Positions 1,558 through 52,921 of a stretch of DNA of 64,000 nucleotides are shown here, one piece after another; position 1 is the stretch's first letter; each line of letters starts with the position of its first letter. Where the stretch lies: the sequence record NC_070982.1. The stretch is one strand, 5' to 3'. This stretch comes from Escherichia phage vB_EcoP-101114UKE3. The position numbers and the translations under genes are program-made. The notes under the pieces are model-generated. The model saw nothing but the letters and a program-made list of their open reading frames with translations, was not told the DNA's origin and did not search any database.

Positions 1558-1573
1558 ATAATGATAATGTAGA
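1554..1573 (+). promoter_or_regulatory. Candidate promoter: TGTTATAAT followed by TAATGTAGA
   Basis: Extended -10-like TGTTATAAT at 1554-1562 and a near-copy of the recurring TAATGTATA element at 1565-1573, 12 nt upstream of the ATG at 1585. Confidence 0.35.
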
Positions 1574-1584
1574 AGGAGTATAAG

Positions 1585-2052
1585 ATGTTTGGAGAAAAAG
1601 GAGAACTCACGCCTGCACAGGTAGCTGAGATTACAGGAAGACTGCCCGGAGTAACGGAAGAACTTGAATCCAAGGGCATGGAACCAAGCACAGGGAAGTT
1701 CACTAAAGGTAATAAATTTGGACGTCCCAAAGGTAGTAGAGGTAAATTGACACAGCTCATGCTCGATCGTGTTGCTGCTAGTCATCTGTCTCCCGATGAA
1801 GTGTTGATTCAGATTTATGAAGATCCAAATATTCCACCCGATCTTAGATTCAAGGCTGCAAGTAAAGTCGCTGATCTGGTATATCCTAAGGCAGCTTCTG
1901 TTGAGGTTAAGATTGAGGAAGAGAATGTAATCAATGAAGAATCACTGAACGCACAGATTCGAGACTTCTTGACTGGTGCACTGAAAGTGGATGTGCTACC
2001 TCCAGAGGACTCTGAGGACGCTGAAAAGGAGGAGGAAGCGGACGAGAGTTAA
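1585..2052 (+). CDS. Putative terminase small subunit (155 aa)
   Basis: Directly upstream of the large terminase; basic segment KGNKFGRPKGSRGK and acidic C-terminus; RBS GAAGGAG; assigned by position. Confidence 0.4.
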   Translation: MFGEKGELTPAQVAEITGRLPGVTEELESKGMEPSTGKFTKGNKFGRPKGSRGKLTQLMLDRVAASHLSPDEVLIQIYEDPNIPPDLRFKAASKVADLVYPKAASVEVKIEEENVINEESLNAQIRDFLTGALKVDVLPPEDSEDAEKEEEADES

Positions 2053-3725: not shown

Positions 3726-5969
3726 ATGGCTAAGAAGAAATTTAGTGAAGATGTTTTGGATGAATTACGCGTTGACCTTCAACGTCGATTCAATTATGCT
3801 CAAGGTTATGTAGACTTAGCTGTAAAAGGCTATGCTCGTGAGGCTTGGGAATACTTCTATGGGAACCTTCCTGCTCCAGTTACTGCTGGTAGCTCTAGTT
3901 GGGTAGACCGTACAGTATGGGAATCAGTGAATGGTACGCTCCAAGATATCATTAACGTGTTCTGTTCTGGTGACGAAGCGGTAACTTTCGTAGCCGATAA
4001 CCAAGAAGATAGTGATGCTGCTGACGTAGCCACTAAACTTGTCAACCAAATTTTGTTACGTGATAATCCGGGATACAATATTATCTCTTCAGCGGCACAA
4101 GAGTGTCTGGTTACACGTAACTCTTTTATTAAATATTATTGGGATGAACAAACTTCTACCCAAACAGAAGAAGCAGAGGGTGTTCCTCCGGAAGCTTTGG
4201 CTGCATATGTCCAAGGTTTAGAAGCTGGTGGGCTTCAAGATTTAGAAATCTTTACCACTGACAACGAAGATGGTACAGTGGATGTTAAAGTAACTTACAA
4301 ACAAACAGTAAAACGCGTTAAAGTAGAATATGTTCCTTCAGAACAGATTTTTGTTGACGAACATGCTACCTCTTTTGCAGATGCTCAGTATTTCTGTCAT
4401 CGCACACGTAAATCTAAAGAAGATCTGGTTGCTATGGGCTTCCCTAAAGATGAAATTGAAGCTTTTAATGACTGGACTGATACAATGGACACCACTCAAT
4501 CTACTGTTGCATGGTCACGTACTGACTGGCGTCAGGATATAGATTCAGATATCGGTGTAGACACTGATGATATCGCTTCTATGGTTTGGGTTTACGAGCA
4601 TTACATCCGTACTGGTGTACTGGATAAGAATAAAGAAGCAAAACTCTATCAAGTTATTCAAGCAGGTGAGCATATTCTCAGTTGTGAAGAAGTAACTAGC
4701 ATTCCTTTTGTAACATTCTGCCCTTATCCTATTCCGGGTTCATTCTATGGACAATCTGTTTATGATATCACCAAAGATATTCAGGATTTGCGTACCGCTT
4801 TGGTTCGTGGTTATATCGATAACGTAAACAATGCTAACTATGGTCGATATAAGGCGCTTGTAGGCGCGTATGACCGTCGTTCTTTGCTAGACAACCGTCC
4901 GGGCGGTGTAGTAGAAATGGAGCGTCAGGATGCGATTGATCTCTTCCCTTACCACAATCTACCTCAGGGTATTGATGGCTTACTAGGAATGTCAGATGAG
5001 TTGAAAGAGACTCGTACTGGTGTTACTAAGCTTGGTATGGGCATTAACCCTGATGTGTTTAAGAATGATAACGCATATGCAACTGTTGGATTGATGATGA
5101 ATGCTGCTCAGAACCGTCTCCGTATGGTCTGTCGTAACATTGCTCACAACGGTATGGTTGAATTGATGCGTGGTATTTATAATTTAGTCCGAGAAAATGG
5201 TGAGGTTCCTTTACAAGTACAAACCCCTCGTGGTATGGTTCAGGTTCATCCTAAACAACTGCCTGCTCGTCACAATCTACAAGTTGTTGTAGCTATCTCT
5301 CCTAGCGAGAAATCAGAACGTGCACAGAAACTCATTAGTCTGAAGCAATTAATTGCTGCTGATGCTCAGTTAGCACCTCTGTTTACTCTGGAGCAAGATC
5401 GTTACATGACTGCACAGATCTTCGAGTTGATGGGAATTAAAGACACTCACAAATACTTAATGCCTCTGGAACAGTATCAACCGCCAGAACCTTCTCCGAT
5501 GGAAATCCTCCAGCTTGAGATGACTAAAGCACAGGTTGAGAACGTACAGGCTTCTTCTCAGAAGATGATTGCTGATGCATTCGACCAGCGTGAACGTACT
5601 ACGTTTGAACAGCAGAAAGCTGCGGACGAGTTCAGCTTACGTCAAGAAGAACTGCAATTTAAGCAAGAGAATGCTGCTGATCAGATGACTTTGGAGAATC
5701 GTAAAGAAGACAACAGTGCTACACTTGAACAGGCTAAGCACAAGTTGGCTCTGCTCCAGCAACAGGTCCGTCAGTATGAATCTGTACTTAAAGAATTGCA
5801 GATGACTCTTAACCATCAGGTTGATGTTGAGAAAGTTGCAAATCAGGCTAAAATTCAAGATAAGACTTTGGAACTCCAAAAGAAAGAAGCAAATGAAACT
5901 AAGAAAGAACAGCAAAGTTCAATCAAAGATTCACGGATTCCTAACCGTCGTCTTGGTAGTAGAAAATAA
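3726..5969 (+). CDS. Putative portal protein (747 aa)
   Basis: Large protein immediately after the large terminase; coiled-coil Q/E/K-rich C-terminus; RBS GAGGGAGAG. Confidence 0.65.
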   Translation: MAKKKFSEDVLDELRVDLQRRFNYAQGYVDLAVKGYAREAWEYFYGNLPAPVTAGSSSWVDRTVWESVNGTLQDIINVFCSGDEAVTFVADNQEDSDAADVATKLVNQILLRDNPGYNIISSAAQECLVTRNSFIKYYWDEQTSTQTEEAEGVPPEALAAYVQGLEAGGLQDLEIFTTDNEDGTVDVKVTYKQTVKRVKVEYVPSEQIFVDEHATSFADAQYFCHRTRKSKEDLVAMGFPKDEIEAFNDWTDTMDTTQSTVAWSRTDWRQDIDSDIGVDTDDIASMVWVYEHYIRTGVLDKNKEAKLYQVIQAGEHILSCEEVTSIPFVTFCPYPIPGSFYGQSVYDITKDIQDLRTALVRGYIDNVNNANYGRYKALVGAYDRRSLLDNRPGGVVEMERQDAIDLFPYHNLPQGIDGLLGMSDELKETRTGVTKLGMGINPDVFKNDNAYATVGLMMNAAQNRLRMVCRNIAHNGMVELMRGIYNLVRENGEVPLQVQTPRGMVQVHPKQLPARHNLQVVVAISPSEKSERAQKLISLKQLIAADAQLAPLFTLEQDRYMTAQIFELMGIKDTHKYLMPLEQYQPPEPSPMEILQLEMTKAQVENVQASSQKMIADAFDQRERTTFEQQKAADEFSLRQEELQFKQENAADQMTLENRKEDNSATLEQAKHKLALLQQQVRQYESVLKELQMTLNHQVDVEKVANQAKIQDKTLELQKKEANETKKEQQSSIKDSRIPNRRLGSRK

Positions 5970-8924: not shown

Positions 8925-8950
8925 CCCTGCCTTCGGGCGGGGTTTTTTCG
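8925..8950 (+). terminator. Rho-independent terminator with UUCG loop
   Basis: CCCTGCC-TTCG-GGCGGGG followed by TTTTTT. Confidence 0.6.
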
Positions 8951-8976: not shown

Positions 8977-8985
8977 TAATGTATA
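8977..8985 (+). promoter_or_regulatory. Candidate phage promoter element TAATGTATA
   Basis: Exact TAATGTATA 34 nt upstream of the ATG at 9019, just after the capsid terminator. Confidence 0.35.
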
Positions 8986-9018: not shown

Positions 9019-9771
9019 ATGGCGATGCCAGACGTTCAAAACCCAATTAATACCTACGGATGGCTTAAGAAGGCTGTGTCCCTCTGGGCTGACCGTGATG
9101 ACCCTGAATTTGTTAATCAAATTCCAAACTTTATTAACTTTGCAGAAAAGGAAATCTACCGTAATTTACGCATTCCTCCTCTGGAAAAAGAAGTCTATTT
9201 AGATATTAAAGATGGAGTAGCTTATATTCCTCCTGATTACTTAGAAGCTCAATGGATGATGAGAGCTAAAGATGGTACAATCTTCCAAGTAACATCTCCG
9301 GAAGAGATTAGCTATCGTAGACAGCATGGAACAATTAACCCATCTCATTGGAATAATCAACCTGTTAATTTTGCTCGTTTCGGTAGTCGTTTCATTTTCT
9401 ATCCTAGTATTGAAGCAGATACTCCGTACTACCCTGATGATGGAAGCCCTTTGATTCCAGCAGAAAACTCAGTGATTCTTAGCTATTATGCAGACCCACC
9501 GGAATTCCATGAAGATACAGATACTAGTACTATTCTTACTATAGCACCGGAACTTCTTCTGTACTTCACCCTACGTCATGCTTGTCTCTTTGTTCAAGAT
9601 GATAATGGTGTTCAGAAATGGTCAGCATTAGGAAAAGCTATCCTTGATGAAATGGTAGAACAGAATAAGAAACAAGAGTACTCAGGTTCACCTATCGCAA
9701 TTCCGAATAACATGACTCGACTTCAGAGCAGCTTGCCTGATATTTATGGTATTCGTACTTCTCGTGTATAA
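9019..9771 (+). CDS. Virion structural protein (250 aa), possibly head-tail adaptor or tail tubular
   Basis: RBS AGGAGG; position between capsid and tail fibre genes. Confidence 0.45.
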   Translation: MAMPDVQNPINTYGWLKKAVSLWADRDDPEFVNQIPNFINFAEKEIYRNLRIPPLEKEVYLDIKDGVAYIPPDYLEAQWMMRAKDGTIFQVTSPEEISYRRQHGTINPSHWNNQPVNFARFGSRFIFYPSIEADTPYYPDDGSPLIPAENSVILSYYADPPEFHEDTDTSTILTIAPELLLYFTLRHACLFVQDDNGVQKWSALGKAILDEMVEQNKKQEYSGSPIAIPNNMTRLQSSLPDIYGIRTSRV

Positions 9772-24203: not shown

Positions 24204-25871
24204 ATGCAACAAACTTCTTATGCGTATCTTCGCAGTCAAGACCCAAGAAATCAGATTTATGGTGTTAAACAAGGGGCCGCTTCGGCCTCTCCATACATGG
24301 CAAGACCTGCTTATCCAGCTGCTGATGTTTCTATGTATAACCGGAGACCTCCTGCTTCTCCTGTAGGTTTGTCTTCTCTTGTTGCCAATGCTCAAGAAGA
24401 CCAAGAAGCTATGTTAAATCCGGGATTTAGACAGCGCCTTATGGAAGCAGAGAATCAAGGAACTCCTACAAGCCTTCAGGGTATTGATATTGGTGAACCA
24501 GCTCCTGCTATGAATAACCCAGATCTATCCTCTGATGAGGGTCTACAAGCTGCTGGGTTGATGCCTAGTGACCCACTTCCTGTTACTCCTCCTCGTAAAC
24601 CTCTGGAAGAAACAGATAAAGAGTTCTCTCCAGTTCAGGTGGAACAGGCTCAGAATGTTATTAACACTTTAGCTAATAGTAATCCAGCTCCTGAAGGTAT
24701 GGCTGGTGCAACTCGTGCTAAAGATCAAGAACGTATTAATAATGATATTATGGAAGTAGCTAAAGCTAAAGACCCAGCACAAGCTTGGAATGAGCTTCAG
24801 AAGCAACCGTTCTATCAGAAGTCTAGTTTCTACACTGGCTTAATGGGTGTTGGTCTTTCTATCATGTCAGGTAAATCCCCTATTGAAGCTTTCCAGATTG
24901 GTTCTGGCTTAGCTGCTCAGGATGAAACTAAACAACAACTAGAAGCCAATCGCGATGCTCTGTTAGAACAAGGCTACTCTCAAGATTCAGTTGCTGCTGC
25001 AATTGCTTCGGGAGATCCTTCTCTTCTCAAGATGCGTCAGATGAGTCCTCAGGAGAAAATGGCTCTTGCTGCTCAGGATGAAGAACGTGCCAATCGTGAG
25101 TGGGATAGACGTCAACAGATTCAAGAGAATTCGATGCGGGAACGTGCTGCTGAAACTCGTCGTGCTGCTGAAGAACGTGCTAATGCTCAGTTCGAGAAAC
25201 AGAAAGAACTTATTGGATATCGTGATCAAGTTAAAGCAGAGCGTGCAGAGAAAGCTGCTCAGAGCTTTACTTTCAACCCTAAAGAAGTTCGTCTGGCTCA
25301 GAATACAGCAGAAGGTACTGTTGCTAAACAGTGGGCAGAAAAAGCAGGTCTGTTTAATCAGTCTCACAAAGACTTGGATTTAGCTGACAAAGCTATTAAA
25401 GATAAGGATTATCAAACTGCTCGTTCTGCTTACATGCAGGCTATCATGAACTCCGCAAGGGCAGAAATTGGTGCTAACCGCTCTCTCCAAGCTGATGACT
25501 TGGCTCACTTTGCAGAAGACCCGTCAATCTTTGTTAAGGTTGGTAATACTTGGTCCCTTAAAGCAGGCTATCGTCCTTCTGATGCTGCTCTGTCATATGC
25601 TCGTAAGCAGGCAACTGTTGGTGCTACTTCCGCTGAGAAAGGTGTGAAGGATGCTAAGAAAGCAACAATTGAGGCATATATCGGTTCTGGTATGGATAAG
25701 AAACGAGCGACAGCTCTTGTCAACCGTGCTATTCCTTCTGCTGGTTTCTATGACCCATTCGGTACGTTTGAGAGTGAAGCTGAAGCAGCTGTTGGTGGAG
25801 ATGCTACAAATCCTCGATTAACAGGTGCTCTTTCTTCTTCAGCGGCAGATACGAGTTGGATGTTCCAGTAA
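24204..25871 (+). CDS. Internal virion protein candidate with a central hydrophobic segment (555 aa)
   Basis: Coiled-coil and charged regions with one transmembrane-like stretch; RBS AGGAGA. Confidence 0.5.
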   Translation: MQQTSYAYLRSQDPRNQIYGVKQGAASASPYMARPAYPAADVSMYNRRPPASPVGLSSLVANAQEDQEAMLNPGFRQRLMEAENQGTPTSLQGIDIGEPAPAMNNPDLSSDEGLQAAGLMPSDPLPVTPPRKPLEETDKEFSPVQVEQAQNVINTLANSNPAPEGMAGATRAKDQERINNDIMEVAKAKDPAQAWNELQKQPFYQKSSFYTGLMGVGLSIMSGKSPIEAFQIGSGLAAQDETKQQLEANRDALLEQGYSQDSVAAAIASGDPSLLKMRQMSPQEKMALAAQDEERANREWDRRQQIQENSMRERAAETRRAAEERANAQFEKQKELIGYRDQVKAERAEKAAQSFTFNPKEVRLAQNTAEGTVAKQWAEKAGLFNQSHKDLDLADKAIKDKDYQTARSAYMQAIMNSARAEIGANRSLQADDLAHFAEDPSIFVKVGNTWSLKAGYRPSDAALSYARKQATVGATSAEKGVKDAKKATIEAYIGSGMDKKRATALVNRAIPSAGFYDPFGTFESEAEAAVGGDATNPRLTGALSSSAADTSWMFQ

Positions 25872-25894: not shown

Positions 25895-25905
25895 TATAAT
25901 GTATA
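25895..25905 (+). promoter_or_regulatory. Candidate promoter element TATAATGTATA
   Basis: TATAAT overlapping TAATGTATA, 37 nt upstream of the ATG at 25942. Confidence 0.35.
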
Positions 25906-25941: not shown

Positions 25942-28900
25942 ATGGCTAATTTAAAATCGTGGGAAGAAGCTTCCAAAGCTCCTGCGTATCTGAACGCCTC
26001 TCCAGAGCAACAGGCTCAAATGAGAGAACAATACAAGGCAGCAGGGGGCACTATTCCTGAGACTCAACCACAAGAGCAACCACAACAAGAAGAACGAGGT
26101 GCTATTGGGGAGTTTGCTCAAGGTGTGTCTAACGCTCTTCAATCAGGTGGTGCTAACATTGCAGCTAGTGCTGCTAAAGGTTTAGGTGGGCTGGTAGAGA
26201 TTGGTGAAAACTTAACTGGTTCGGAAACAAGCTATGGTAAGCGCATTCAAGAGAACTCTAAACAGTTGCTGGAAGAACGCTTATCTAAGATAGAAGATGG
26301 TTTTGGTAAAACAGCTGGTCAGTATGCTGGTGTTGCTGCTGATATTGGTTTGACAGTTGCAAACCCTGCTGTTGCTGCTGCTGTTATCGCAGCTCGTGAA
26401 ACAGGTCGTGCTTATGCTGATCAAACTCCTAAAGAAGATGAAGATAAATCAGTCTTAGATGCTGCTCTTGTTGGTGGTGCTAACTACGCTGCTCAGAAGA
26501 TCCTTCCGGGCATGACTGGTACAGCTTCTACTACTCTTGGTCGTGTAGGACAAAGCGTAGCCTCTAACGCAGTTGCTGGTGCTAAGGGTGGTGCTATTGT
26601 TGGTGCTGCTGAAGCTCAGAACAAATATGGGGATGACACTACTCTAGCTAACGTATTAGAAGGGGCTATTGAAGAGGGTGCACTCGGTGCTGCTTATGGT
26701 GGGGCGATTGGTGGGGTTCATGGGTTAATAAGCCGTCCTAGCCCTCAAGTGTTTGATCGTACTCCTGAGCATGTTAAGACTGACATTGCTGCTGAAGATG
26801 AGGCTATTCGTAAAGCTGCTAACGCTGATGAACTTCGTGAAGCCTATGCTAAAGCTGAGAATGCTAATGCTGCCTCTGCTTTAAACCTTCTGGATGAAAA
26901 TGGTTTCCGAATCACAGATGCAGTTGCTATGGACTCTCCTGCTGTTCAGCGTATATTAAATACAGACCAAAGTCGTGCAGAGAAAGCTGCTACGGTTCAG
27001 AAAGATAGCTCTAATGTTCCCGGTCTCAATCCTCTCGCTTCTCCTAAGAAGACTCAAGGTAAAGCTTTTGCTGACAATGAGTACAACCAGAAACAAGCTG
27101 TGGCAATGAAAGATGCAATGGCTGACTACACTAAAGATAACACCAAAGCCCTTACTGATGTTCTAGACAACCTAGACCGAGAGTTAGTAGCTCTGAGAGC
27201 AAGTGGTGATTTTACTGGTAGTGCTATTGACATTAAAAACCGTACTCAAGCTGATCGTGATTTTATTGATGCTTATAAAACTTTTTACAGTGAAGCTAAT
27301 CGTTTCAAAGCTCGTGATGGTGAAGACCTAAACAACTTCATTGATAAAGCTACTCAGTTGCAGAAGCTATCTGAAAATGTTTCTCCAGAAATGAAGAAGG
27401 CCATTGGTGGATTAAAGAAACTAAAAGGTATGCCTGAAGGTTTTAACCCTATCCAAGATGCTTTCACTCTGAATAATACAGCTAAGTTCATGAGTAACCA
27501 AGACCGTGGTTGGACCTCTCTGACTGATGACGGTTTTCGTGAAGCTCCGGCTCCTGTGTTAGTTAAGAATCCTCTCGGTGCAGCCAAGTATGTACTTAAC
27601 CGCTTTACTTCCGATCGTGCTCGTGCTCAACGTGAGAAGCAACAGTCAGCTAATAGTGAAGCTATCCGCTCTTTGGCTAGGGCTGATTTAGAAGTACAAC
27701 GAGCTAGGACTCAGGCTGAAGAAGCAAGAGCAAAAATGGAAGAAGAACCAACCACAGAAGACATCAAATTCCGTACTCAAAATGATGCACCTTCCGAACC
27801 GGTTCGTGAGGAGCCTTCTGCTACTACTGTGACGGAAGAAATTCCGTCCTCTCCAGCTCCAACTGAAACACCTCTTACTGCGAGGGATTTGGTTGCTCAA
27901 AGACGTGCTCTCCAACAAGCAGAGCTTAGACGTCAAGAAGCTGAAGCTGCTCAGGCTCAAGAAAGTGCTACACCAGAACCTGAACCACAGCAAGAAGCTC
28001 TTACAGCTAGAGAATTAGTAGCTCAGCGTAGGGCTGTAGCAGAGGCTAAGAAACGTCAAGAGGCAGAAGAAGCAGAACGTGCTAAAGAAGCTCCTGAGGA
28101 AGCCGTAGAAGAGCCTAAAGAGAAACCTGAGCCATTACCTGCTCGTGCTCCTAAAGCTCCTGAGAAGGCTCCTGAGCCTGTTAAACCGTCACTTGGTGTA
28201 GAGCGTCTAGCTTCTATGTCAACTGCTGCTCGTCAAGCAACGAAAGACCGTGCTGATCGATTTGCTCGTTCTTTGTATTCGGCTGCTGCTAAAGCTAAAG
28301 CCACTGCGGAAAATTTCCTTTCTTACAAGGGAGATCCTAAAGAGCTTATGCGTCGTATCCGTCAGGAAGACCAAGCAAACAACACACAGCGTCATGAAGA
28401 GATGGCTAGAAACCAACTAGCTTCACAGCAAGGCATTGCTTCTGCTAAATCTCAACATGTTCGTGCTTCTTTTGCTGATTGGGTGAAAGAACGTGGGTTG
28501 CCTTCTGATATTGCTACTAAGGCTTTACGGGCTGAAGAGAAAGGTTTAGGTGGGAACGTCACAAGTCTAGATTCACTGAAGCGAAGAGCTGAGCGTTTAT
28601 ATCAGAAACAAAGAGATGATGAGTTTGACCGTCTCTATCGAGAGGCTCTGGAAGAGAATAAAGCTTTTGATAAGAGAGATGCTCCTAAACTGGTAGACCA
28701 GAAGAAAGAGCTTCAGGATGAAATTGGTGCGTTGCTTGATGCTGAACCGTTACGTCCTGCTCAGAAAGATGCTATGCGTAGGATTATGGAAGACTTCGTG
28801 GAGAGTAAGTTTAAATCTTCAGAGAAAGCTGGAAGGGTTGAGGCTTTGGAAGTTGGTCAGATGAAGGATGTGTGGGATGGGTTTATTAATACCTATAACC

Positions 28901-30387
28901 GAGAAGTTAACATGTTCAACAAGGCTAACAAGAATTCTCAATACGAAGCAGCAGCTAAACACTTGCAAGCACGTCAAGAACGTCTTGAGACGCTCCGTAA
29001 CAGAGCTAAAGCTCGCAGTGATGCTAAGGCAGCCATGGAGGCTGAGAAGCAGTCCTTGGAGGCTATAGCGGCTCAGAAATCAGAGATAGAGAAGATGTTC
29101 AAAGAATTGCCTGAAAGTGTCAGAGAGGCTCAGGAAGGGCGTACTTTGAAACAGCTTGCTGCTCACCATGATAAGAACTCTCCAGTACCACCAGAGCGTT
29201 TCCGTAGTATCATTGAACGTATTCACAACGCTGAGAGTGATTACCTCGATCGCAAACGTCGTTTGACCGAAGCAGAGGAAGATGCTCGTGAAGCTAAGTG
29301 GAATAGGATGTATGAACAGGCTGAGGAAATGAACCGTAAGTTTGATATCGATGCTAGAGTGAAGAGAGATAAGGCTCTGAAGGAAGCTCAAGAACGAGAG
29401 AATGACTTAATGGCAGTTCAACGTCAGCGTGACGACATTCATAAGCGTTTGGTCAATACTCTGGAAGAGAAGGGAGTTTCTAGAGAAGATGCTGAAGCAT
29501 ATGCTGGGTCTTATATGGATAATCGGTATGCTTTGTTAGAGAAACCAATGACTCCAGTGGAACATCAGAATGCTCGTGCTCGTATCGAATCTGACGTAGA
29601 GAAGTTTGTTAAGAAATACGAAACAGCTACTCCAATCGAAAGAGAGATTGCTAAAGCAACTGGTGATGCAGATGGGAAACCTTCTGACTTAGATGCAGAA
29701 ACATTAAAAGCTATCGAAGATGCTCGTAAAGTTGATTCCGATTTTAAGAAACTCTTAGATGAAGAGAAGGAAATGGAGAAGATTCGTTCAGCTCTACCTG
29801 AAGATGAAAGATCTCAGGCGAACTCTGATATTCTGGAAAGTATTAAGAAACAGGAAGATGATTTTGCTAGCAAAGCAGAGAAAGCTTTTATTGAAGGGAA
29901 GGACTTGCAGGAGTTAGCGAGTGTTGCAGAAGTTCTAGATAGGGTTCATGGTGCAGACAAGGCTGGTAACAACCGTCGATTTGTACGTGCTCTACAGACT
30001 GCTGCCGAGAACAAGAAACGTTATGGGGATAATCCAGTGGCTTGGTTTAGTGCTGATGATTACTCTGCTATTGCGAAACTTGGTGCTGCTTCGGCAGGTG
30101 GTAACAAATCTCGAGCACTTGAGAAAATCTTTGGTTCTACAGCAGAACAAGCTAAAGGGAAACTTTTAGGGCGGGATGATGTAGCTAAGATTAGACGTGT
30201 GATTGAAGCGAATCCCAATGTTAAGATTCCTTCTTACAAGACAACTACTCGACAAGAGTACATGCAGTTCTTGGAGAAGTATAATGACGAGGGAGAGTTG
30301 AAAGTCAAACGTGGTTCTCTGTCTGACAAGTTGGAGAGAGGTAAGCGTCAAGCTAAACTCCGTGTTAGAGTTCGAGCTAAGGAGTAA
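25942..30387 (+). CDS. Giant coiled-coil virion protein, internal or ejection protein or tape-measure-like (1481 aa)
   Basis: A/E/K/R-rich helical repeats; last gene of the plus-strand module; RBS AAGGAGA. Confidence 0.55.
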   Translation: MANLKSWEEASKAPAYLNASPEQQAQMREQYKAAGGTIPETQPQEQPQQEERGAIGEFAQGVSNALQSGGANIAASAAKGLGGLVEIGENLTGSETSYGKRIQENSKQLLEERLSKIEDGFGKTAGQYAGVAADIGLTVANPAVAAAVIAARETGRAYADQTPKEDEDKSVLDAALVGGANYAAQKILPGMTGTASTTLGRVGQSVASNAVAGAKGGAIVGAAEAQNKYGDDTTLANVLEGAIEEGALGAAYGGAIGGVHGLISRPSPQVFDRTPEHVKTDIAAEDEAIRKAANADELREAYAKAENANAASALNLLDENGFRITDAVAMDSPAVQRILNTDQSRAEKAATVQKDSSNVPGLNPLASPKKTQGKAFADNEYNQKQAVAMKDAMADYTKDNTKALTDVLDNLDRELVALRASGDFTGSAIDIKNRTQADRDFIDAYKTFYSEANRFKARDGEDLNNFIDKATQLQKLSENVSPEMKKAIGGLKKLKGMPEGFNPIQDAFTLNNTAKFMSNQDRGWTSLTDDGFREAPAPVLVKNPLGAAKYVLNRFTSDRARAQREKQQSANSEAIRSLARADLEVQRARTQAEEARAKMEEEPTTEDIKFRTQNDAPSEPVREEPSATTVTEEIPSSPAPTETPLTARDLVAQRRALQQAELRRQEAEAAQAQESATPEPEPQQEALTARELVAQRRAVAEAKKRQEAEEAERAKEAPEEAVEEPKEKPEPLPARAPKAPEKAPEPVKPSLGVERLASMSTAARQATKDRADRFARSLYSAAAKAKATAENFLSYKGDPKELMRRIRQEDQANNTQRHEEMARNQLASQQGIASAKSQHVRASFADWVKERGLPSDIATKALRAEEKGLGGNVTSLDSLKRRAERLYQKQRDDEFDRLYREALEENKAFDKRDAPKLVDQKKELQDEIGALLDAEPLRPAQKDAMRRIMEDFVESKFKSSEKAGRVEALEVGQMKDVWDGFINTYNREVNMFNKANKNSQYEAAAKHLQARQERLETLRNRAKARSDAKAAMEAEKQSLEAIAAQKSEIEKMFKELPESVREAQEGRTLKQLAAHHDKNSPVPPERFRSIIERIHNAESDYLDRKRRLTEAEEDAREAKWNRMYEQAEEMNRKFDIDARVKRDKALKEAQERENDLMAVQRQRDDIHKRLVNTLEEKGVSREDAEAYAGSYMDNRYALLEKPMTPVEHQNARARIESDVEKFVKKYETATPIEREIAKATGDADGKPSDLDAETLKAIEDARKVDSDFKKLLDEEKEMEKIRSALPEDERSQANSDILESIKKQEDDFASKAEKAFIEGKDLQELASVAEVLDRVHGADKAGNNRRFVRALQTAAENKKRYGDNPVAWFSADDYSAIAKLGAASAGGNKSRALEKIFGSTAEQAKGKLLGRDDVAKIRRVIEANPNVKIPSYKTTTRQEYMQFLEKYNDEGELKVKRGSLSDKLERGKRQAKLRVRVRAKE

Positions 30388-32181: not shown

Positions 32182-32770
32182 AGAGTTCTCTCCGTGTCCG
32201 TACAACAATCCAGTTTAAATAATCTACTGCATCTTCTACAGTAGAATTATTCGCTAGGTAGTATGTATTTCTCTGACTACCTTCAATGTAGGAACGAGAA
32301 TCTCCTTTAAAATCACAACCTTCACGAATCACCTGAATTACCTGAACATGGAAATGTTTCTCTAGTTCTTCAACTTCGGCTTTGAACCCACCATCAGAGA
32401 AGACGATAACATCATTCTGTGATGGGATACGTTGTTGAATACTGCTAACAGCAAGTTTACCCATGCAGGTCTCACCAAACATAGGCTTCAGGTAATTCTC
32501 GCTAGTTGCAATCATCAAGTCTCGAACTGACTTACCGTCCCATTCAGGACGGCTATGTTCTTTCCACTCACGATCGTTGTACAGCTCCATGAACTCATAA
32601 AGAGGTAGACCTAATGCAGCAGCAGCCACTCGATACATAGGCTCCTTAAAAGCCTTTACATGAGGCCTAAACTCGGTGTTACCAAGTGTTTTCTCTAACC
32701 AAGAATTAGCGATTGTATCTTTACCACAACCCGGTGGTCCATTCAGAATTACTACTAATGGTTTACTCAT
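32174..32770 (-). CDS. P-loop kinase, deoxynucleoside monophosphate kinase-like (198 aa)
   Basis: N-terminal P-loop GPPGCGKDT. Confidence 0.5.
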   Translation of the reverse strand: MSKPLVVILNGPPGCGKDTIANSWLEKTLGNTEFRPHVKAFKEPMYRVAAAALGLPLYEFMELYNDREWKEHSRPEWDGKSVRDLMIATSENYLKPMFGETCMGKLAVSSIQQRIPSQNDVIVFSDGGFKAEVEELEKHFHVQVIQVIREGCDFKGDSRSYIEGSQRNTYYLANNSTVEDAVDYLNWIVVRTRRELYV

Positions 32771-33420
32771 TATTGAATCATCCCTTGAAGATCTTCTTTA
32801 TCAAAGTGCTTCTCTACTACCGCTTCATACAGATCACGATTCTCTGAATAACGACGATAGAAGGTTCCGTGTGAAATTCCCAACTCTTGCTGGATGTGAT
32901 CATGTGGGATGCCGAGAAAGAGCATTGAGAACATGCTTGCCATCTTACGGTTTTCCATAATGTCACTCAGGTCTTGGAAGAAGAAAAAGATTCTAGATTC
33001 CAAGAACGGGTCTCCAGTAGAATCATGCTTATCCATCGCAATCTCTAAAGGACTTTCCCATGAATTCATCTCAGGAGGTCTAAACATATCAGCCTCTGGA
33101 ATAGAGTAGATACGTCGGTCTCCAACTGTCTGGCGATTAGAACGAATCGACCAGATGATATTCTTGACACGATAAGTCATGTGCTCAATATCTTTTTCAT
33201 CAGTGAGCAGAAGTTCTTCTTGCTTTGCAAACACAAAACGCCAAGCGTTCAGTAATACTTCCTGAGCAACATCCTCTGCCTCGTGATAGTCTTTAATGTC
33301 ATACATAAAATACTTATGCACAACTTTCCAATTCTCTCGATAGAATTCATCGAAGGTTGGGTAGTACTTAATAGGTATGCCATGAATACGATAGCGTGTG
33401 GGTGTTGTCTTTTTCTTCAT
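32770..33420 (-). CDS. Sigma-70 family (ECF-like) sigma factor (216 aa)
   Basis: Region 2-like [15 protein letters not shown] and region 4-like [29 protein letters not shown]. Confidence 0.55.
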
Positions 33421-33444
33421 AAGTCATCCTTAACTTACTTTACA

Positions 33445-33669
33445 TTAAACTACACAGAATAAATACATTGCTGTTTCAGGGGAAGGTATGTGGTCACTAG
33501 GATATCTAACCCTAATCCACTCATCATCTTCTGCTACATAATAAGCCCAATAAGACCCATTTTCATTAATAAAGAACTTGAAGGTACAACCAAAGATTTG
33601 GTTATTGTGTTCCCATACTGCATGAAACTGAGTAACACCTTCTGGTATTGTAAGTTCCGCTCTGATCAT
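33445..33669 (-). CDS. Hypothetical protein (74 aa)
   Basis: ORF whose start overlaps the o-spanin stop. Confidence 0.4.
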   Translation of the reverse strand: MIRAELTIPEGVTQFHAVWEHNNQIFGCTFKFFINENGSYWAYYVAEDDEWIRVRYPSDHIPSPETAMYLFCVV

Positions 33670-34171: not shown

Positions 34172-34197
34172 AAAAAAGCCACCCGAAGGTGGCTAAG
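34172..34197 (-). terminator. Rho-independent terminator with UUCG loop (minus strand)
   Basis: Minus-strand RNA reads AGCCACC-UUCG-GGUGGCU followed by UUUUUU. Confidence 0.5.
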
Positions 34198-34217: not shown

Positions 34218-34958
34218 TTAGAAAGGGCTGTCATCTTCTTCAAAGGTAGACTGCGGCTCTTCGTTAATAGTAGGGATACTTGGAGTAGCATCTTTCTGTT
34301 CAGTATCAGAAGCTTTAGTAACTTCACGACCAGCCAGAGGGATGTTCTTAGCATCATTAGCTTGGGTCAGAAGATTACGTTGGAATGGGAAGATTGCTTG
34401 ATAAGCAGCCAAGTTAGCATCAGTCTCAGCATACGGTTCGAAGAAGATCAACTCACTACGAGGGGCACCTACAGCATCACGATATTTGGTAGGGATTGGA
34501 GTGATACTCTTAATGGAGTTTTTCTTCTCACCAGCTTTGTTTACATAGGAATTAACCAGAATGTTAACAGGCTGACCTAGCAGCATATCTTTAAACCAAC
34601 CCAAATCACCTTTCAGTGCTTGAACACTTGGGTCGATCATTTTAATCAGATTCAGAATACCAGAGTTCTTAGCTCGTGGGTTTACGTCGAAAGTTTTAAA
34701 CTGGCAAGCAGGACGAGGGTCCAGAGGTTTGCCTTCATTATCAGTCCCTGTTGCATCTACGCCAATCAGCTCAAAAGCTAAGTCCATACGGAAAGCTGGG
34801 TTCTTAGGGGTAACTGCTTTGGTCTTAGGGTCAATCCAAGGGTCACGATTGTGAACACCTAAACCTACAACACGAACAATACGTGCTTCGTACTCACCAT
34901 CAGGGATTACATCGTAGTTGGATTTACGGGATACAGACAGTTCAGGGATCATAGACAT
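34218..34958 (-). CDS. ssb: Single-stranded DNA-binding protein (246 aa)
   Basis: Acidic C-terminal tail EEDDSPF resembling the SSB DDDIPF-type tail; position in the replication module. Confidence 0.55.
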   Translation of the reverse strand: MSMIPELSVSRKSNYDVIPDGEYEARIVRVVGLGVHNRDPWIDPKTKAVTPKNPAFRMDLAFELIGVDATGTDNEGKPLDPRPACQFKTFDVNPRAKNSGILNLIKMIDPSVQALKGDLGWFKDMLLGQPVNILVNSYVNKAGEKKNSIKSITPIPTKYRDAVGAPRSELIFFEPYAETDANLAAYQAIFPFQRNLLTQANDAKNIPLAGREVTKASDTEQKDATPSIPTINEEPQSTFEEDDSPF

Positions 34959-35017
34959 ATTAATATTTCCTTATATAAATTTAAGATTGTTGCTCTCTTT
35001 GAGCGGTTTGTATACTA

Positions 35018-35026
35018 TATACATTA
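35018..35026 (-). promoter_or_regulatory. Candidate promoter element TAATGTATA upstream of the SSB gene
   Basis: Minus strand reads GTGTAATGTATATA about 60 nt upstream of the SSB ATG. Confidence 0.3.
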
Positions 35027-35087
35027 CACTTATACAGATAAGGTTCTATTATACTATAACCTTTTTGGTAGTAGATAATGACAAGTA

Positions 35088-35096
35088 GTAATGTAT
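35088..35096 (+). promoter_or_regulatory. Plus-strand copy of TAATGTATA in the AT-rich intergenic region
   Basis: GTAGTAATGTATATATGG on the plus strand, divergent from the minus-strand copy at 35018-35026. Confidence 0.25.
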
Positions 35097-35372
35097 ATAT
35101 GGTATAGCTAGTAAAGCTATTGCAGGCTTGTATATTGGGCAATCATTGTAACCCTTGCAAGTACCGAAGGGCAGGAGACACCTGCGAGATAAAATAGAGA
35201 ATTAAGGAAATCCTTGATTTAGGTTGTAGGGACTCCTAGGGACTTTGATTCTCTATTTAAAAGAATATTAATTACTTACTACCTAAATAATTAACTAACT
35301 TACTTAAACCAAACTCAAGAATAATAGATAAAAAGATTATTCCTAAGAAAGCTAAAAAGTAAAGGATATAAG

Positions 35373-41224: not shown

Positions 41225-41539
41225 TCAACTTGAGCTTAAAGCTCCTTTGCGACCGCCTGCTGATTTTCCAGCACGATCTCCACTTTTGCCGCCGTTCGAG
41301 CGATTTCGAGAGACTGATTCAACACGTAAGTTACTTGACGCATTAGAACCTCCCGACTTGATTGATCGTTTGTGTCCAACATCTTTACCTCGGACAGCAG
41401 CTTTTCCATCGCGCTTTTCAACGATGCGACGTGCACGGTGGCGCTGAGCATCTCCGCTCTTGCTACCAACGCCGGTCTCACCCCTTGCGATTGCAGTTCT
41501 TCGTTCTTGTGCATAATCACGTTTCGCCTTATCGGTCAT
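41225..41539 (-). CDS. Highly basic low-complexity R/K/G/S-rich protein (about 104 aa), candidate nucleic-acid binder
   Basis: Strong AAGGAG RBS, its own TAATGTATA element and terminator; local GC is visibly higher and an alternative-frame ORF 41236..41520 is also open. Confidence 0.4.
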   Translation of the reverse strand: MTDKAKRDYAQERRTAIARGETGVGSKSGDAQRHRARRIVEKRDGKAAVRGKDVGHKRSIKSGGSNASSNLRVESVSRNRSNGGKSGDRAGKSAGGRKGALSSS

Positions 41540-41574
41540 CATAACTCCTTAATATATCAGTGTACACTAAGGAG

Positions 41575-41583
41575 TATACATTA
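41575..41583 (-). promoter_or_regulatory. Candidate promoter element TAATGTATA upstream of the basic-protein gene
   Basis: Minus strand reads CATAATGTATACTCC about 35 nt upstream of the ATG; overlaps an 8-bp inverted repeat ACTCCTTA / TAAGGAGT that includes the RBS. Confidence 0.35.
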
Positions 41584-45257: not shown

Positions 45258-45824
45258 TTAGTAAGACACATCACCACTGGAGTGGGACATGTTGCTCTTG
45301 ACGAAGTAACAGAACTTGCCAAGACCTTCATTAATTTCTTGAAGCATACTCTGGTCCACTGGATAGGTGCACAAGTCTGAATCAAACTCATCCATCTTCT
45401 CAATGATACACATAAGAGTCATGCACATGTCGGAAAGCATACCGTCCATGTCAAGATCAGCGTTACCTTCTCGGAACCAAGCATGACCTAAATAATTACT
45501 AGCAGTAGCATCCACTTTAACACAATGAAAGCGCATACGCTCTGCTATTCGGTCGCCTGCCTCACGAGCATAATCTTCTAGTTCATCGAACATACCATGA
45601 ACACCTTGGAAACCAGCTCCAGAGACGTTCCAGTGGTAGTTCTTTGCTTTGATGTGTAGAAGTTCAAGGTTAGCTTGCACACCACACAAGATGTGTTCTA
45701 AGCTGTTACCGCTAATCAGTTTATTCATTCCCTCAAGACGAGAGATAGAAGAGTCAGTAGCAGAGAATGGGTTGCTAGAACCCACTCGTGTTAGTTCTGG
45801 TAAGTCGAAGACATTATTATGCAT
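45258..45824 (-). CDS. Dps-like ferritin-fold protein (188 aa)
   Basis: KNYHWNVSGAGFQGVHGMFDELEDYAREAGDRIAERM matches the Dps pattern HW-x-V-x-G-x-F...H...F-x-E...D-x-IAER. Confidence 0.65.
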   Translation of the reverse strand: MHNNVFDLPELTRVGSSNPFSATDSSISRLEGMNKLISGNSLEHILCGVQANLELLHIKAKNYHWNVSGAGFQGVHGMFDELEDYAREAGDRIAERMRFHCVKVDATASNYLGHAWFREGNADLDMDGMLSDMCMTLMCIIEKMDEFDSDLCTYPVDQSMLQEINEGLGKFCYFVKSNMSHSSGDVSY

Positions 45825-46146
45825 TAGGTGCATCCCCTTCTAAGTTAGTTGAATTAGCTACATTACGAGCAATGTTATCCATGACCTGCTGTGTAATAAC
45901 AATGCAATTCTGAGGGTCTACTGATTTAGAACGCCCCATCTCAGGGTCATAGACTTTGACTCGCTTGGCTGTTGAGCCAGTAACTTGCAACACTTTGAGA
46001 AGATAGCCTTGGTTTCCAATAGACCATGCAACAACATCACGATTCTTGATATAACGACCAAGCATGTCACGATGATAGAACTGCTGCATAACTTTAGCTT
46101 TGCTAATCTCTTCAGATGGCGGGGCCACTTTACTCAAATCTAACAT
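45817..46146 (-). CDS. Hypothetical protein (109 aa)
   Basis: ATG at 46146 with AGGAGAG RBS; a near-copy of the TAATGTATA element lies about 40 nt upstream. Confidence 0.4.
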   Translation of the reverse strand: MLDLSKVAPPSEEISKAKVMQQFYHRDMLGRYIKNRDVVAWSIGNQGYLLKVLQVTGSTAKRVKVYDPEMGRSKSVDPQNCIVITQQVMDNIARNVANSTNLEGDAPNA

Positions 46147-46216
46147 AACTCTCTCCTGTTTCATACAATATTCTTATACTGTATATACATTTGAGAGTTA
46201 TCATATCTACTACCAA

Positions 46217-52496: not shown

Positions 52497-52682
52497 TTAT
52501 TCTACTTCGAAGTGTTTGATCACACCAGTCAGTACATCAGATTGGAATGTACCCACTAGCTCTGTACCTCGGAAAAAGTTAACACTTGTTCCAAGTGATT
52601 CAAAGCGATCTGCTTGAATGTCCAGAGATTGAATATTTCCTTCTGCTGACATTGTACGAAACATGATTGTGTATTTATTCAC
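52497..52682 (-). CDS. Small hypothetical protein (61 aa), GTG start
   Basis: GTG at 52682 with AAGGGAG RBS, overlapping the upstream stop. Confidence 0.35.
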   Translation of the reverse strand: MNKYTIMFRTMSAEGNIQSLDIQADRFESLGTSVNFFRGTELVGTFQSDVLTGVIKHFEVE

Positions 52683-52921
52683 AGACTCGTTACTCCCTTA
52701 TCTGCTTGTGCAATTGCGATGATACGCTCAGCACATTCCATTGAATACTTATCACCTCGTTTGAGGAAGGTGATGATTGCAGAGAACTGATTACCAATCA
52801 TTCTCTTATTTGTGATACCAAACTCTTCACAGAGTTGGTTGATAGCTTTACGAGAGCCTACAATCAGAGGCTCTTTTTCTTCGGTCATTCCACGGCTGAT
52901 CAAATCTTCGATAGACAACAT
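52679..52921 (-). CDS. Small hypothetical protein (80 aa)
   Basis: ORF in the operon. Confidence 0.4.
   Translation of the reverse strand: MLSIEDLISRGMTEEKEPLIVGSRKAINQLCEEFGITNKRMIGNQFSAIITFLKRGDKYSMECAERIIAIAQADKGVTSL

Follow-up and report, generated by a model that had tools for sequence, protein, structure and literature searches.

The window analysed here, a stretch of 64,000 nucleotides from Escherichia phage vB_EcoP-101114UKE3 (NC_070982.1), carries on its minus strand an open reading frame (ORF) that an earlier note, made from the sequence alone, had taken for an ECF-like sigma factor. The locus raises the question of whether the encoded protein is a sigma factor and, if it is, which promoters it would serve, with which partner and under what control.

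Identity of the protein encoded at 32770..33420

32770..33420, minus strand: gene for a sigma factor, orthologous to phiEco32 gene 36 (216 aa; assigned from the ORF, homology and residues)

The ORF opens with an ATG codon, ahead of which an AAGGA ribosome-binding site is found. Its product could be aligned over the full length (214 aligned residues, 80% identity) with gp36 of phage phiEco32 (phi32_36, YP_001671781), relative to which it carries a 2-residue insertion in the inter-domain linker. In a search of the PHROGs profiles it matched PHROG 1740, 'RNA polymerase sigma factor' (E=1e-43), and its best sequence match in the PDB was 9m7y_F, 'RNA polymerase ECF sigma factor' (E=1e-117). Together with gp79, gp36 was identified by mass spectrometry of RNA polymerase from phiEco32-infected cells (PMC12276001); the gp36 holoenzyme is active in vitro on phiEco32 promoters of the middle and late classes (PMC12276001; PMC8948821), and the gp36 open promoter complex has been solved by cryo-EM (PDB 9m7y), with mutagenesis also published. 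With its function carried over from phiEco32, the window ORF almost certainly encodes an orthologue of gp36, that is, a sigma factor that would retarget host RNA polymerase.

Alignment to gp36 places a sigma2-like N-terminal domain at approximately residues 1-103 and a sigma4-like C-terminal domain at approximately residues 140-216, joined by a linker. The AlphaFold model of the protein (mean pLDDT 75) has a helical domain at either end and, at residues 99-115, a disordered linker, so that the sigma2-linker-sigma4 architecture and fold are present in the model, in agreement with the cryo-EM description and its stated deviations. When this model was used as a Foldseek query, 9m7y_F ranked first (E=7e-19). 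Ranks 2-27, with E-values of 0.018 or weaker and probabilities of up to 0.98, were taken by ECF sigma factors (including SigE, SigH, SigL, AlgU, SigW, SigK, BldN and sigma-E), except for two flagellar sigma-28 chains and one integrative model.

Curated sequence profiles gave a fainter signal. Pfam Sigma70_r2 (PF04542) fell below its cut-off (19.1 versus 24 bits, E=1.1e-3, residues 26-61), as did NCBIfam TIGR02937 for sigma70-ECF (20.6 versus 42.9 bits), and region 4 was matched by neither Sigma70_r4 nor Sigma70_r4_2. Among 19 relatives of the protein, with identities down to 43%, Sigma70_r2 was matched weakly by all 19 (best E=1.9e-5) and Sigma70_r4_2 by 2 only (E=0.0036). Because the Pfam and NCBIfam sigma-70 thresholds are failed, the protein is by sequence a distant sigma-70 homologue; it is group 4 sigma-like by fold, yet fails the formal ECF profile tests by sequence. 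The label ECF-like is thus upheld by the fold, the identity to gp36 and the match to 9m7y_F, but not by the sigma-70 cut-offs. The search against sigma-70 regions 2 and 4 that the earlier note had suggested left region 2 under threshold and region 4 unmatched, with PHROG 1740 as the profile that did match; to read the lack of a sigma-70 profile match as a refutation is too strict, since the orthologue gp36 is a proven sigma factor.

A weak C-terminal match to TetR_N (E=0.064), matches to TetR-family PDB chains (E=0.3 and 0.02) and weak HTH_23 matches in 3 of the 19 relatives could be taken to mean that the protein is an ordinary helix-turn-helix DNA-binding regulator, for example a TetR-like one, which acts on DNA without replacing sigma. 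These matches are insignificant and limited to the helix-turn-helix, whereas the similarity to gp36, a protein seen by cryo-EM at the sigma position on the polymerase, spans the full length, and the Sigma70_r2 signal recurs in every family member. An ordinary regulator is accordingly regarded as extremely improbable, and the protein is treated below as a gp36-type sigma factor.

Over the 2.5 kb compared around the gene, identity is 100% with Escherichia phage vB_EcoP-101114BS3 (MZ234015) and 93-96% with MLP3, IME267, SU7, Bas86/87 and NC-B. The window represents a phiEco32-like podovirus of E. coli, and these relatives are phiEco32-like podoviruses of the subfamily Gordonclarkvirinae. The sigma protein was found in 97 phage records, all with Escherichia or Shigella hosts, and is identical in MLP3, NC-B and HC-25922. 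It is labelled 'hypothetical protein' in MZ234015 (locus 101114BS3_011), SU7, MLP3, ECBP2 and E20-1, and newer records name it "RNA polymerase (ECF) sigma factor". The SU7 genome paper stated that an alternative sigma factor may hide among the SU7 hypothetical proteins (PMC8399022). The sigma factor system of the window is already known, and the value of the identification is practical: the gene can be named, and the temporal programme of the window, with its middle and late promoters and gp79 switch, becomes readable, while no open question is moved.

Conservation of the residues that contact polymerase, promoter and gp79

In 9m7y, the N-terminal domain of gp36 (1-103) sits on the clamp helices via D44, E47, E49, D50 and E54; the -10 region is read by E79, H80, Y83, R84, W90, S91, S94 and N95; and the linker passes through the active-site cleft. 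The C-terminal domain (138-214) grips the flap-tip helix with M138, I142, F166, L167 and F204, R187 and Y186 contact -37G and -34A, and helix 1 of gp79 is docked on F146, M164, L167 and I169. All 24 gp36 residues published as contacting polymerase, promoter or gp79 are conserved in the window protein (23 identical, one Met to Leu). The acidic clamp-binding helix (5 of 5) and the -10-reading residues (8 of 8) are identical, and so is the -35-reading pair Y186/R187, numbered Y188/R189 in the window protein. The flap-tip groove is identical at four of its five positions, with M138 of gp36 replaced by L140, and the gp79-docking groove (F148/M166/L169/I171 in window numbering) is unchanged. Across the 19-member alignment (at least 43% identity), D44, E47 and D50 are invariant, and the two -35-reading residues and most of the clamp- and -10-contacting residues are invariant or nearly so.

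Both of the motifs pointed out in the earlier note were found to carry such residues. The 15-residue region 2-like motif corresponds to residues 48-62 and holds E49, D50 and E54, three of the five acidic residues that bind the clamp, and the 26-residue region 4-like helix-turn-helix corresponds to residues 176-201, with Y188/R189 at the beginning of the predicted recognition helix. The claim that such a factor redirects host RNA polymerase to middle and late promoters is likewise supported, through the orthology to gp36 and the identical contact residues.

Variation was seen further out in the family. H80, which contacts -11G, is replaced by N in six more distant members, and one distant contig encodes a sigma protein in which H80 is kept and R93 is changed to H, with TAACGTATT upstream of gene 40 in place of the TAATGTATT of its relatives. 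The H80N, R93H and TAACGTATT changes hint at a drift of promoter specificity within the gp36 family.

A gp79 orthologue in the window

52679..52921, minus strand: gp79 orthologue, predicted inhibitor of the sigma-70 holoenzyme and co-activator of the phage sigma (80 aa, 76% identical)

In phiEco32, transcription by sigma-70 is inhibited by gp79, which raises that by gp36 3-4 fold (PMC12276001). A tblastn search with gp79 located this ORF with 76% identity (E=2e-40), and its 80-aa product matched gp79 of 9m7y_G/9m7z in the PDB (E=5e-37). The residues that touch gp36 and RNA polymerase are either kept or exchanged conservatively (L6I, V10I, L29I and W36F). This partner, although encoded in the same window, was missed in the earlier reading. 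The orthologue belongs to PHROG 8339, labelled 'unknown function' despite the solved structure and mechanism of gp79; the label is an annotation gap in PHROGs.

Promoter elements of the phage sigma

The promoters of gp36 have AATGTA in common, centred at -11.5 (PMC12276001). Six gp36-dependent promoters were mapped in phiEco32, upstream of genes 6, 13, 26, 40, 58 and 68, with the consensus tAATGTAtA and transcription starting 6-8 nt downstream of it (PMC8948821; PMC4331800). These six published elements recur in the window letter for letter, at matching positions upstream of the corresponding genes:

1565..1573, plus strand: P6-type late promoter element TAATGTAGA, in front of the gene 6 orthologue (ORF 1585..2052)
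8977..8985, plus strand: P13-type late promoter element TAATGTATA, the start of which lies 42 nt ahead of the ORF at 9019
25897..25905, plus strand: P26-type late promoter element TAATGTATA, in front of the 1481-aa ORF 25942..30387
35018..35026, minus strand: P40-type middle promoter element TAATGTATA, the start of which lies 68 nt ahead of the gene 40 orthologue 34218..34958
41575..41583, minus strand: P58-type middle promoter element TAATGTATA, upstream of ORF 41225..41542
46184..46192, minus strand: P68-type middle promoter element AAATGTATA, upstream of ORF 45817..46164

Exact copies of TAATGTATA number 5 in the window versus 0.53 expected, and none of 100 shuffles reached 5. The variant letters of P6 and P68 are those published for the phiEco32 promoters ('TAATGTAgA' and 'aAATGTATA', respectively). 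The spacing from element to start codon is exactly that of phiEco32 for P13 (42 nt; 9101 to 9143 in phiEco32) and P40 (68 nt; 4171 to 4239 of the compared segment) and lies within a few nucleotides of it for P26 and P58. Upstream of P68, TTGGTAGTAGATA supplies -37G and -34A, with which contact is made in the P68 complex solved by cryo-EM. With the sites aligned on the element, -34A occurs in 7 of 7 window sites, that is, the six above and an antisense site described below, and -37G occurs in P6, P58, P68 and the antisense site. The proposal that the TAATGTATA sites are promoters of this sigma factor is borne out by the recurrence of the six published elements at matching places.

A gp36-family sigma with promoter specificity or gp79 dependence shifted in this Suseptimavirus-like lineage, for which not all TAATGTATA sites would be true targets, was also weighed. 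Room for such a shift is given by the 20% of residues that differ from gp36, the 2-residue linker insertion and the four substitutions in the gp79 orthologue, and the H80N change and the exchange of TAATGTATT for TAACGTATT upstream of gene 40 are precedents elsewhere in the family. The base-contacting residues published for gp36 are nevertheless all identical in the window protein, the six promoter elements equal those of phiEco32 both in sequence and in position to the downstream genes, and the gp79 substitutions are conservative. Shifted specificity or gp79 dependence is considered very unlikely, and a sigma factor with the promoter preference of gp36 is preferred.

The upstream sequences of these promoters fall into two kinds. 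TAAGACCTA is common to P13 and P26 at -38..-30 (window 8939-8948 and 25859-25868, plus strand), and P40 has TAGAACCTTA (35049-35058, minus strand), placed one position further downstream than TAAGACCTA in P13 and P26; TGGnA is found at -38..-34 in P6, P58, P68 and the antisense site. The two kinds might set differing timing or gp79 dependence of gp36-type promoters. A separate observation concerns P6, the element of which leaves only 11 nt to the start codon (ATG) of the gene 6 orthologue (window 1565-1587, plus strand). A start 6-8 nt downstream of the element gives a leader of only approximately 3-5 nt and leaves out the AGGAG ribosome-binding site, so that either another transcript is translated or the annotated start of gene 6 is wrong.

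Proposed transcription programme

In phiEco32 the sigma-70 holoenzyme transcribes the early genes, and the gp36 holoenzyme transcribes those of the middle and late classes (PMC12276001). Genes 36 and 79 are themselves middle genes (PMC8948821; PMC4331800), gene 36 lying in the middle cluster of a common early/middle strand (PMC8948821). The programme shown for phiEco32 was carried to the window by orthology. Under it, host sigma-70 polymerase would transcribe the early genes, and the phage sigma and gp79 would follow as middle-class products. The gp79 orthologue would bind the outer face of the beta' clamp, with its N-terminus inserted into the RNA exit channel, and would displace sigma-70 region 4, whereby host and early transcription would be switched off. 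The phage sigma would grip core polymerase at two places, with its sigma2-like domain on the clamp helices, bound by the acidic helix D44/E47/E49/D50/E54, and its sigma4-like domain on the flap-tip helix. AATGTA at -11.5 would be read by E79, H80, Y83, R84, W90, S91, S94 and N95, and -37G and -34A would be touched by R189 and Y188, while the N-terminal helix of gp79 on the sigma C-terminal domain would stabilise the open complex. The resulting holoenzyme is predicted to transcribe the middle genes on the minus strand from the P40-, P58- and P68-type promoters and the late structural genes on the plus strand from the P6-, P13- and P26-type promoters.

Comparison with other sigma factors

The bacterial ECF factors (SigE, SigH and SigL of M. 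tuberculosis, AlgU of P. aeruginosa and sigma-E of E. coli) resemble the window protein and gp36 in their length of approximately 200 aa, in having sigma2-like and sigma4-like domains and in the passage of the linker through the active-site cleft, and they are the best structural neighbours after 9m7y; the Sigma70_r2 signal in the gp36 family, weak but consistent, fits the same picture. The window protein differs in lying under all curated sequence cut-offs, with region 4 essentially undetectable. According to the cryo-EM paper, the first helix of gp36 is rotated by approximately 70 degrees, its C-terminal recognition-side helix is shorter and the flap-tip helix is bound differently. The gp36 promoter consists of AATGTA at -11.5 with sparse -35 contacts rather than a bipartite motif, and gp36 activity is boosted by a co-activator, gp79, rather than held by an anti-sigma factor, a mode of control that is typical of ECF factors without being universal among them. 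No match to an anti-sigma family was found among the neighbouring genes scanned in the window.

The late sigma factor gp55 of T4, with its co-activator gp33, is likewise a highly diverged phage sigma that reads an essentially single -10-like element, and its need for a second small phage protein on the polymerase (gp33) for full activity offers a parallel. No detectable sequence relationship between gp55 and gp36 is known. The T4 system differs in that activation is also coupled to the sliding clamp, whereas gp36 retains a sigma4-like domain touching the -35 region.

The phiEco32-related Salmonella phage 7-11 has a protein of the same role, SaPh711_gp47, encoded at a comparable genome position, and its promoter positions correspond to those of phiEco32 (PMC8948821). 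SaPh711_gp47 is, however, only approximately 15% identical and recognises the bipartite motif GTAAtg-(16)-aCTA, and phage 7-11 is without a gp79 homologue, a middle class and host shut-off (PMC8948821).

Genomic context and expression of the sigma gene

Plus-strand ORFs of the window extend up to 30387 and minus-strand ORFs start from 30505, and the GC skew changes sign at approximately 30 kb, where the two gene blocks converge. The sigma gene lies approximately 2.3 kb from this point, with five annotated genes in between. Its assignment to an early-strand block holds for the strand, which is the early/middle one, but not for the class, gene 36 being a middle gene in phiEco32.

With respect to gene 40 and to the genes for the dNMP kinase and the exonuclease, the sigma gene sits where it does in phiEco32. 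A 198-aa gene of the window matches a dNMP kinase family. In metagenomic relatives (sigma 47-64% identical), the order of gene 40, the sigma gene, a 196-202-aa gene, the exonuclease gene and a convergent giant gene is kept. The window differs from phiEco32 in having a 74-aa ORF (PHROG 30479) upstream of the sigma gene, where phiEco32 has the macro-domain protein gp37, and in that no gp35 separates the sigma gene from the dNMP kinase gene.

A further difference concerns the promoter of the gene itself. For the sigma gene of SU10, the product of which is identical to gp36, the SU10 paper predicted a sigma-70-type promoter immediately upstream, and TGGACA-18-TATAAT can be read in phiEco32 at the corresponding place. 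A scan for sigma-70-type promoters near the window sigma gene gave none above 9 of 12 matches; the SU10-type predicted promoter is missing here because a different gene occupies the upstream segment. Going upstream from the sigma gene, P40 is the first gp36-type promoter; the following feature lies between the two:

34177..34194, minus strand: strong, GC-rich hairpin (AGCCACC-TTCG-GGTGGCT) resembling an intrinsic terminator, with a T run after it, right behind gene 40

The hairpin is kept in phiEco32 with a loop change. It would leave gene 40 largely monocistronic and highly expressed and would limit P40-driven transcription of the sigma gene.

An autoregulatory gp36-type promoter was also considered, in the form of TAATGTAAA at 33439-33447 (minus strand), which ends 18 nt before the sigma ATG, and was found to be unsupported. 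A second AATGTA core was noted at 33461-33466 (minus strand), 14 nt upstream of the TAATGTAAA site. Each lies within the upstream ORF or at its end, and one of them overlaps the stop codon of that ORF. The proximal site reads TAATATAAA in TH34, the distal core reads TATGTA in ECBP2, and neither core exists in phiEco32 or E20-1. Promoter sites with one mismatch occur in the window at chance level (24 observed versus 18 expected), and the two cores before the sigma start are probably due to chance. Given the lack of a convincing promoter of its own and the hairpin after gene 40, the sigma gene is probably expressed by low-level read-through from upstream promoters, P40 included. If P40 is indeed read through into the sigma gene, the arrangement would amount to weak positive feedback.

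The gene 40 orthologue (34218-34958, minus strand), which lies between a strong phage promoter and the terminator-like hairpin, encodes a 246-aa protein of PHROG 6599 (function unknown) with the acidic tail ...EEDDSPF. This tail resembles those of single-stranded DNA-binding proteins; as a candidate for a recognisable member of that group, the gene 40 product was set aside, having no Pfam match.

A candidate antisense promoter and a conserved non-coding stretch

The two features listed here are the sole parts of the locus that could extend the known phiEco32 transcription system:

35089..35097, plus strand: seventh element, an exact TAATGTATA in antisense orientation, back to back with P40 and 63 nt apart from it
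35104..35262, plus strand: non-coding stretch, conserved and structured, that follows the antisense promoter, with its core at approximately 35165-35262

The antisense element carries the -35 sequence of P68, TTGGTAGTAGATA at -39..-27, including -37G and -34A, and thus has the layout TTGGTAGTAGATA-N10-TAATGTATA. The pair formed with P40 is present in phiEco32 too, and the element at 35089-35097 is missing from the six published gp36 promoters. Both halves of the antisense promoter are invariant in 10 phages, even where its spacer and the stretch separating it from P40 vary. In metagenomic relatives with sigma proteins 63-64% identical, an antisense TAATGTATT is preceded by TGGTAGT and lies opposite a P40-like site; in two other relatives, the antisense element is degenerate. 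The promoter would fire away from P40, against the whole early/middle block.

The 414-nt intergenic region is 80-100% identical across the 97 records, and the neighbouring 2.5 kb fall in the 60-80% identity band for 74 of them. For the approximately 160 nt that follow the antisense promoter, the plus strand gives the better fold (consensus -34 kcal/mol, versus -25 kcal/mol for the minus strand), and the 5' hairpin has three covarying pairs and G-U pairs that become C-A mismatches on the minus strand. A 3' module of approximately 95 nt is nearly invariant, also in a metagenomic contig with a sigma protein 70% identical and an unrelated 5' part; MN05, ECBP2 and a metagenomic relative have unrelated sequence in the 5' part. 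Searches of the intergenic region and the module against Rfam gave no match. A dispersed repeat is ruled out, because the module is single-copy in the window and its IMG/VR matches are only in contigs of approximately 77 kb, like phiEco32-like genomes.

From this conservation and folding, it is possible, if still doubtful, that the sigma regulon includes the seventh promoter and that this yields a candidate structured non-coding RNA of approximately 160 nt. When read from the minus strand, this long hairpin has a U run after it and could simply terminate the upstream operon, but a terminator role by itself would not account for the degree of conservation. If real, the RNA might act as a small regulatory RNA, prime replication or belong to an insulator; in the last case, the insulator would keep transcription of the upstream operon from reading through after the phage sigma has taken over. 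A literature search on an RNA or an origin in phiEco32 found nothing relevant, and GC skew was discarded as a pointer to an origin near 35 kb, as its only sign change is that at the convergence of the gene blocks.

MZ234015 annotates a 53-aa CDS with a TTG start at 34981-35142 (minus strand), which spans both TAATGTATA promoters and is probably spurious.
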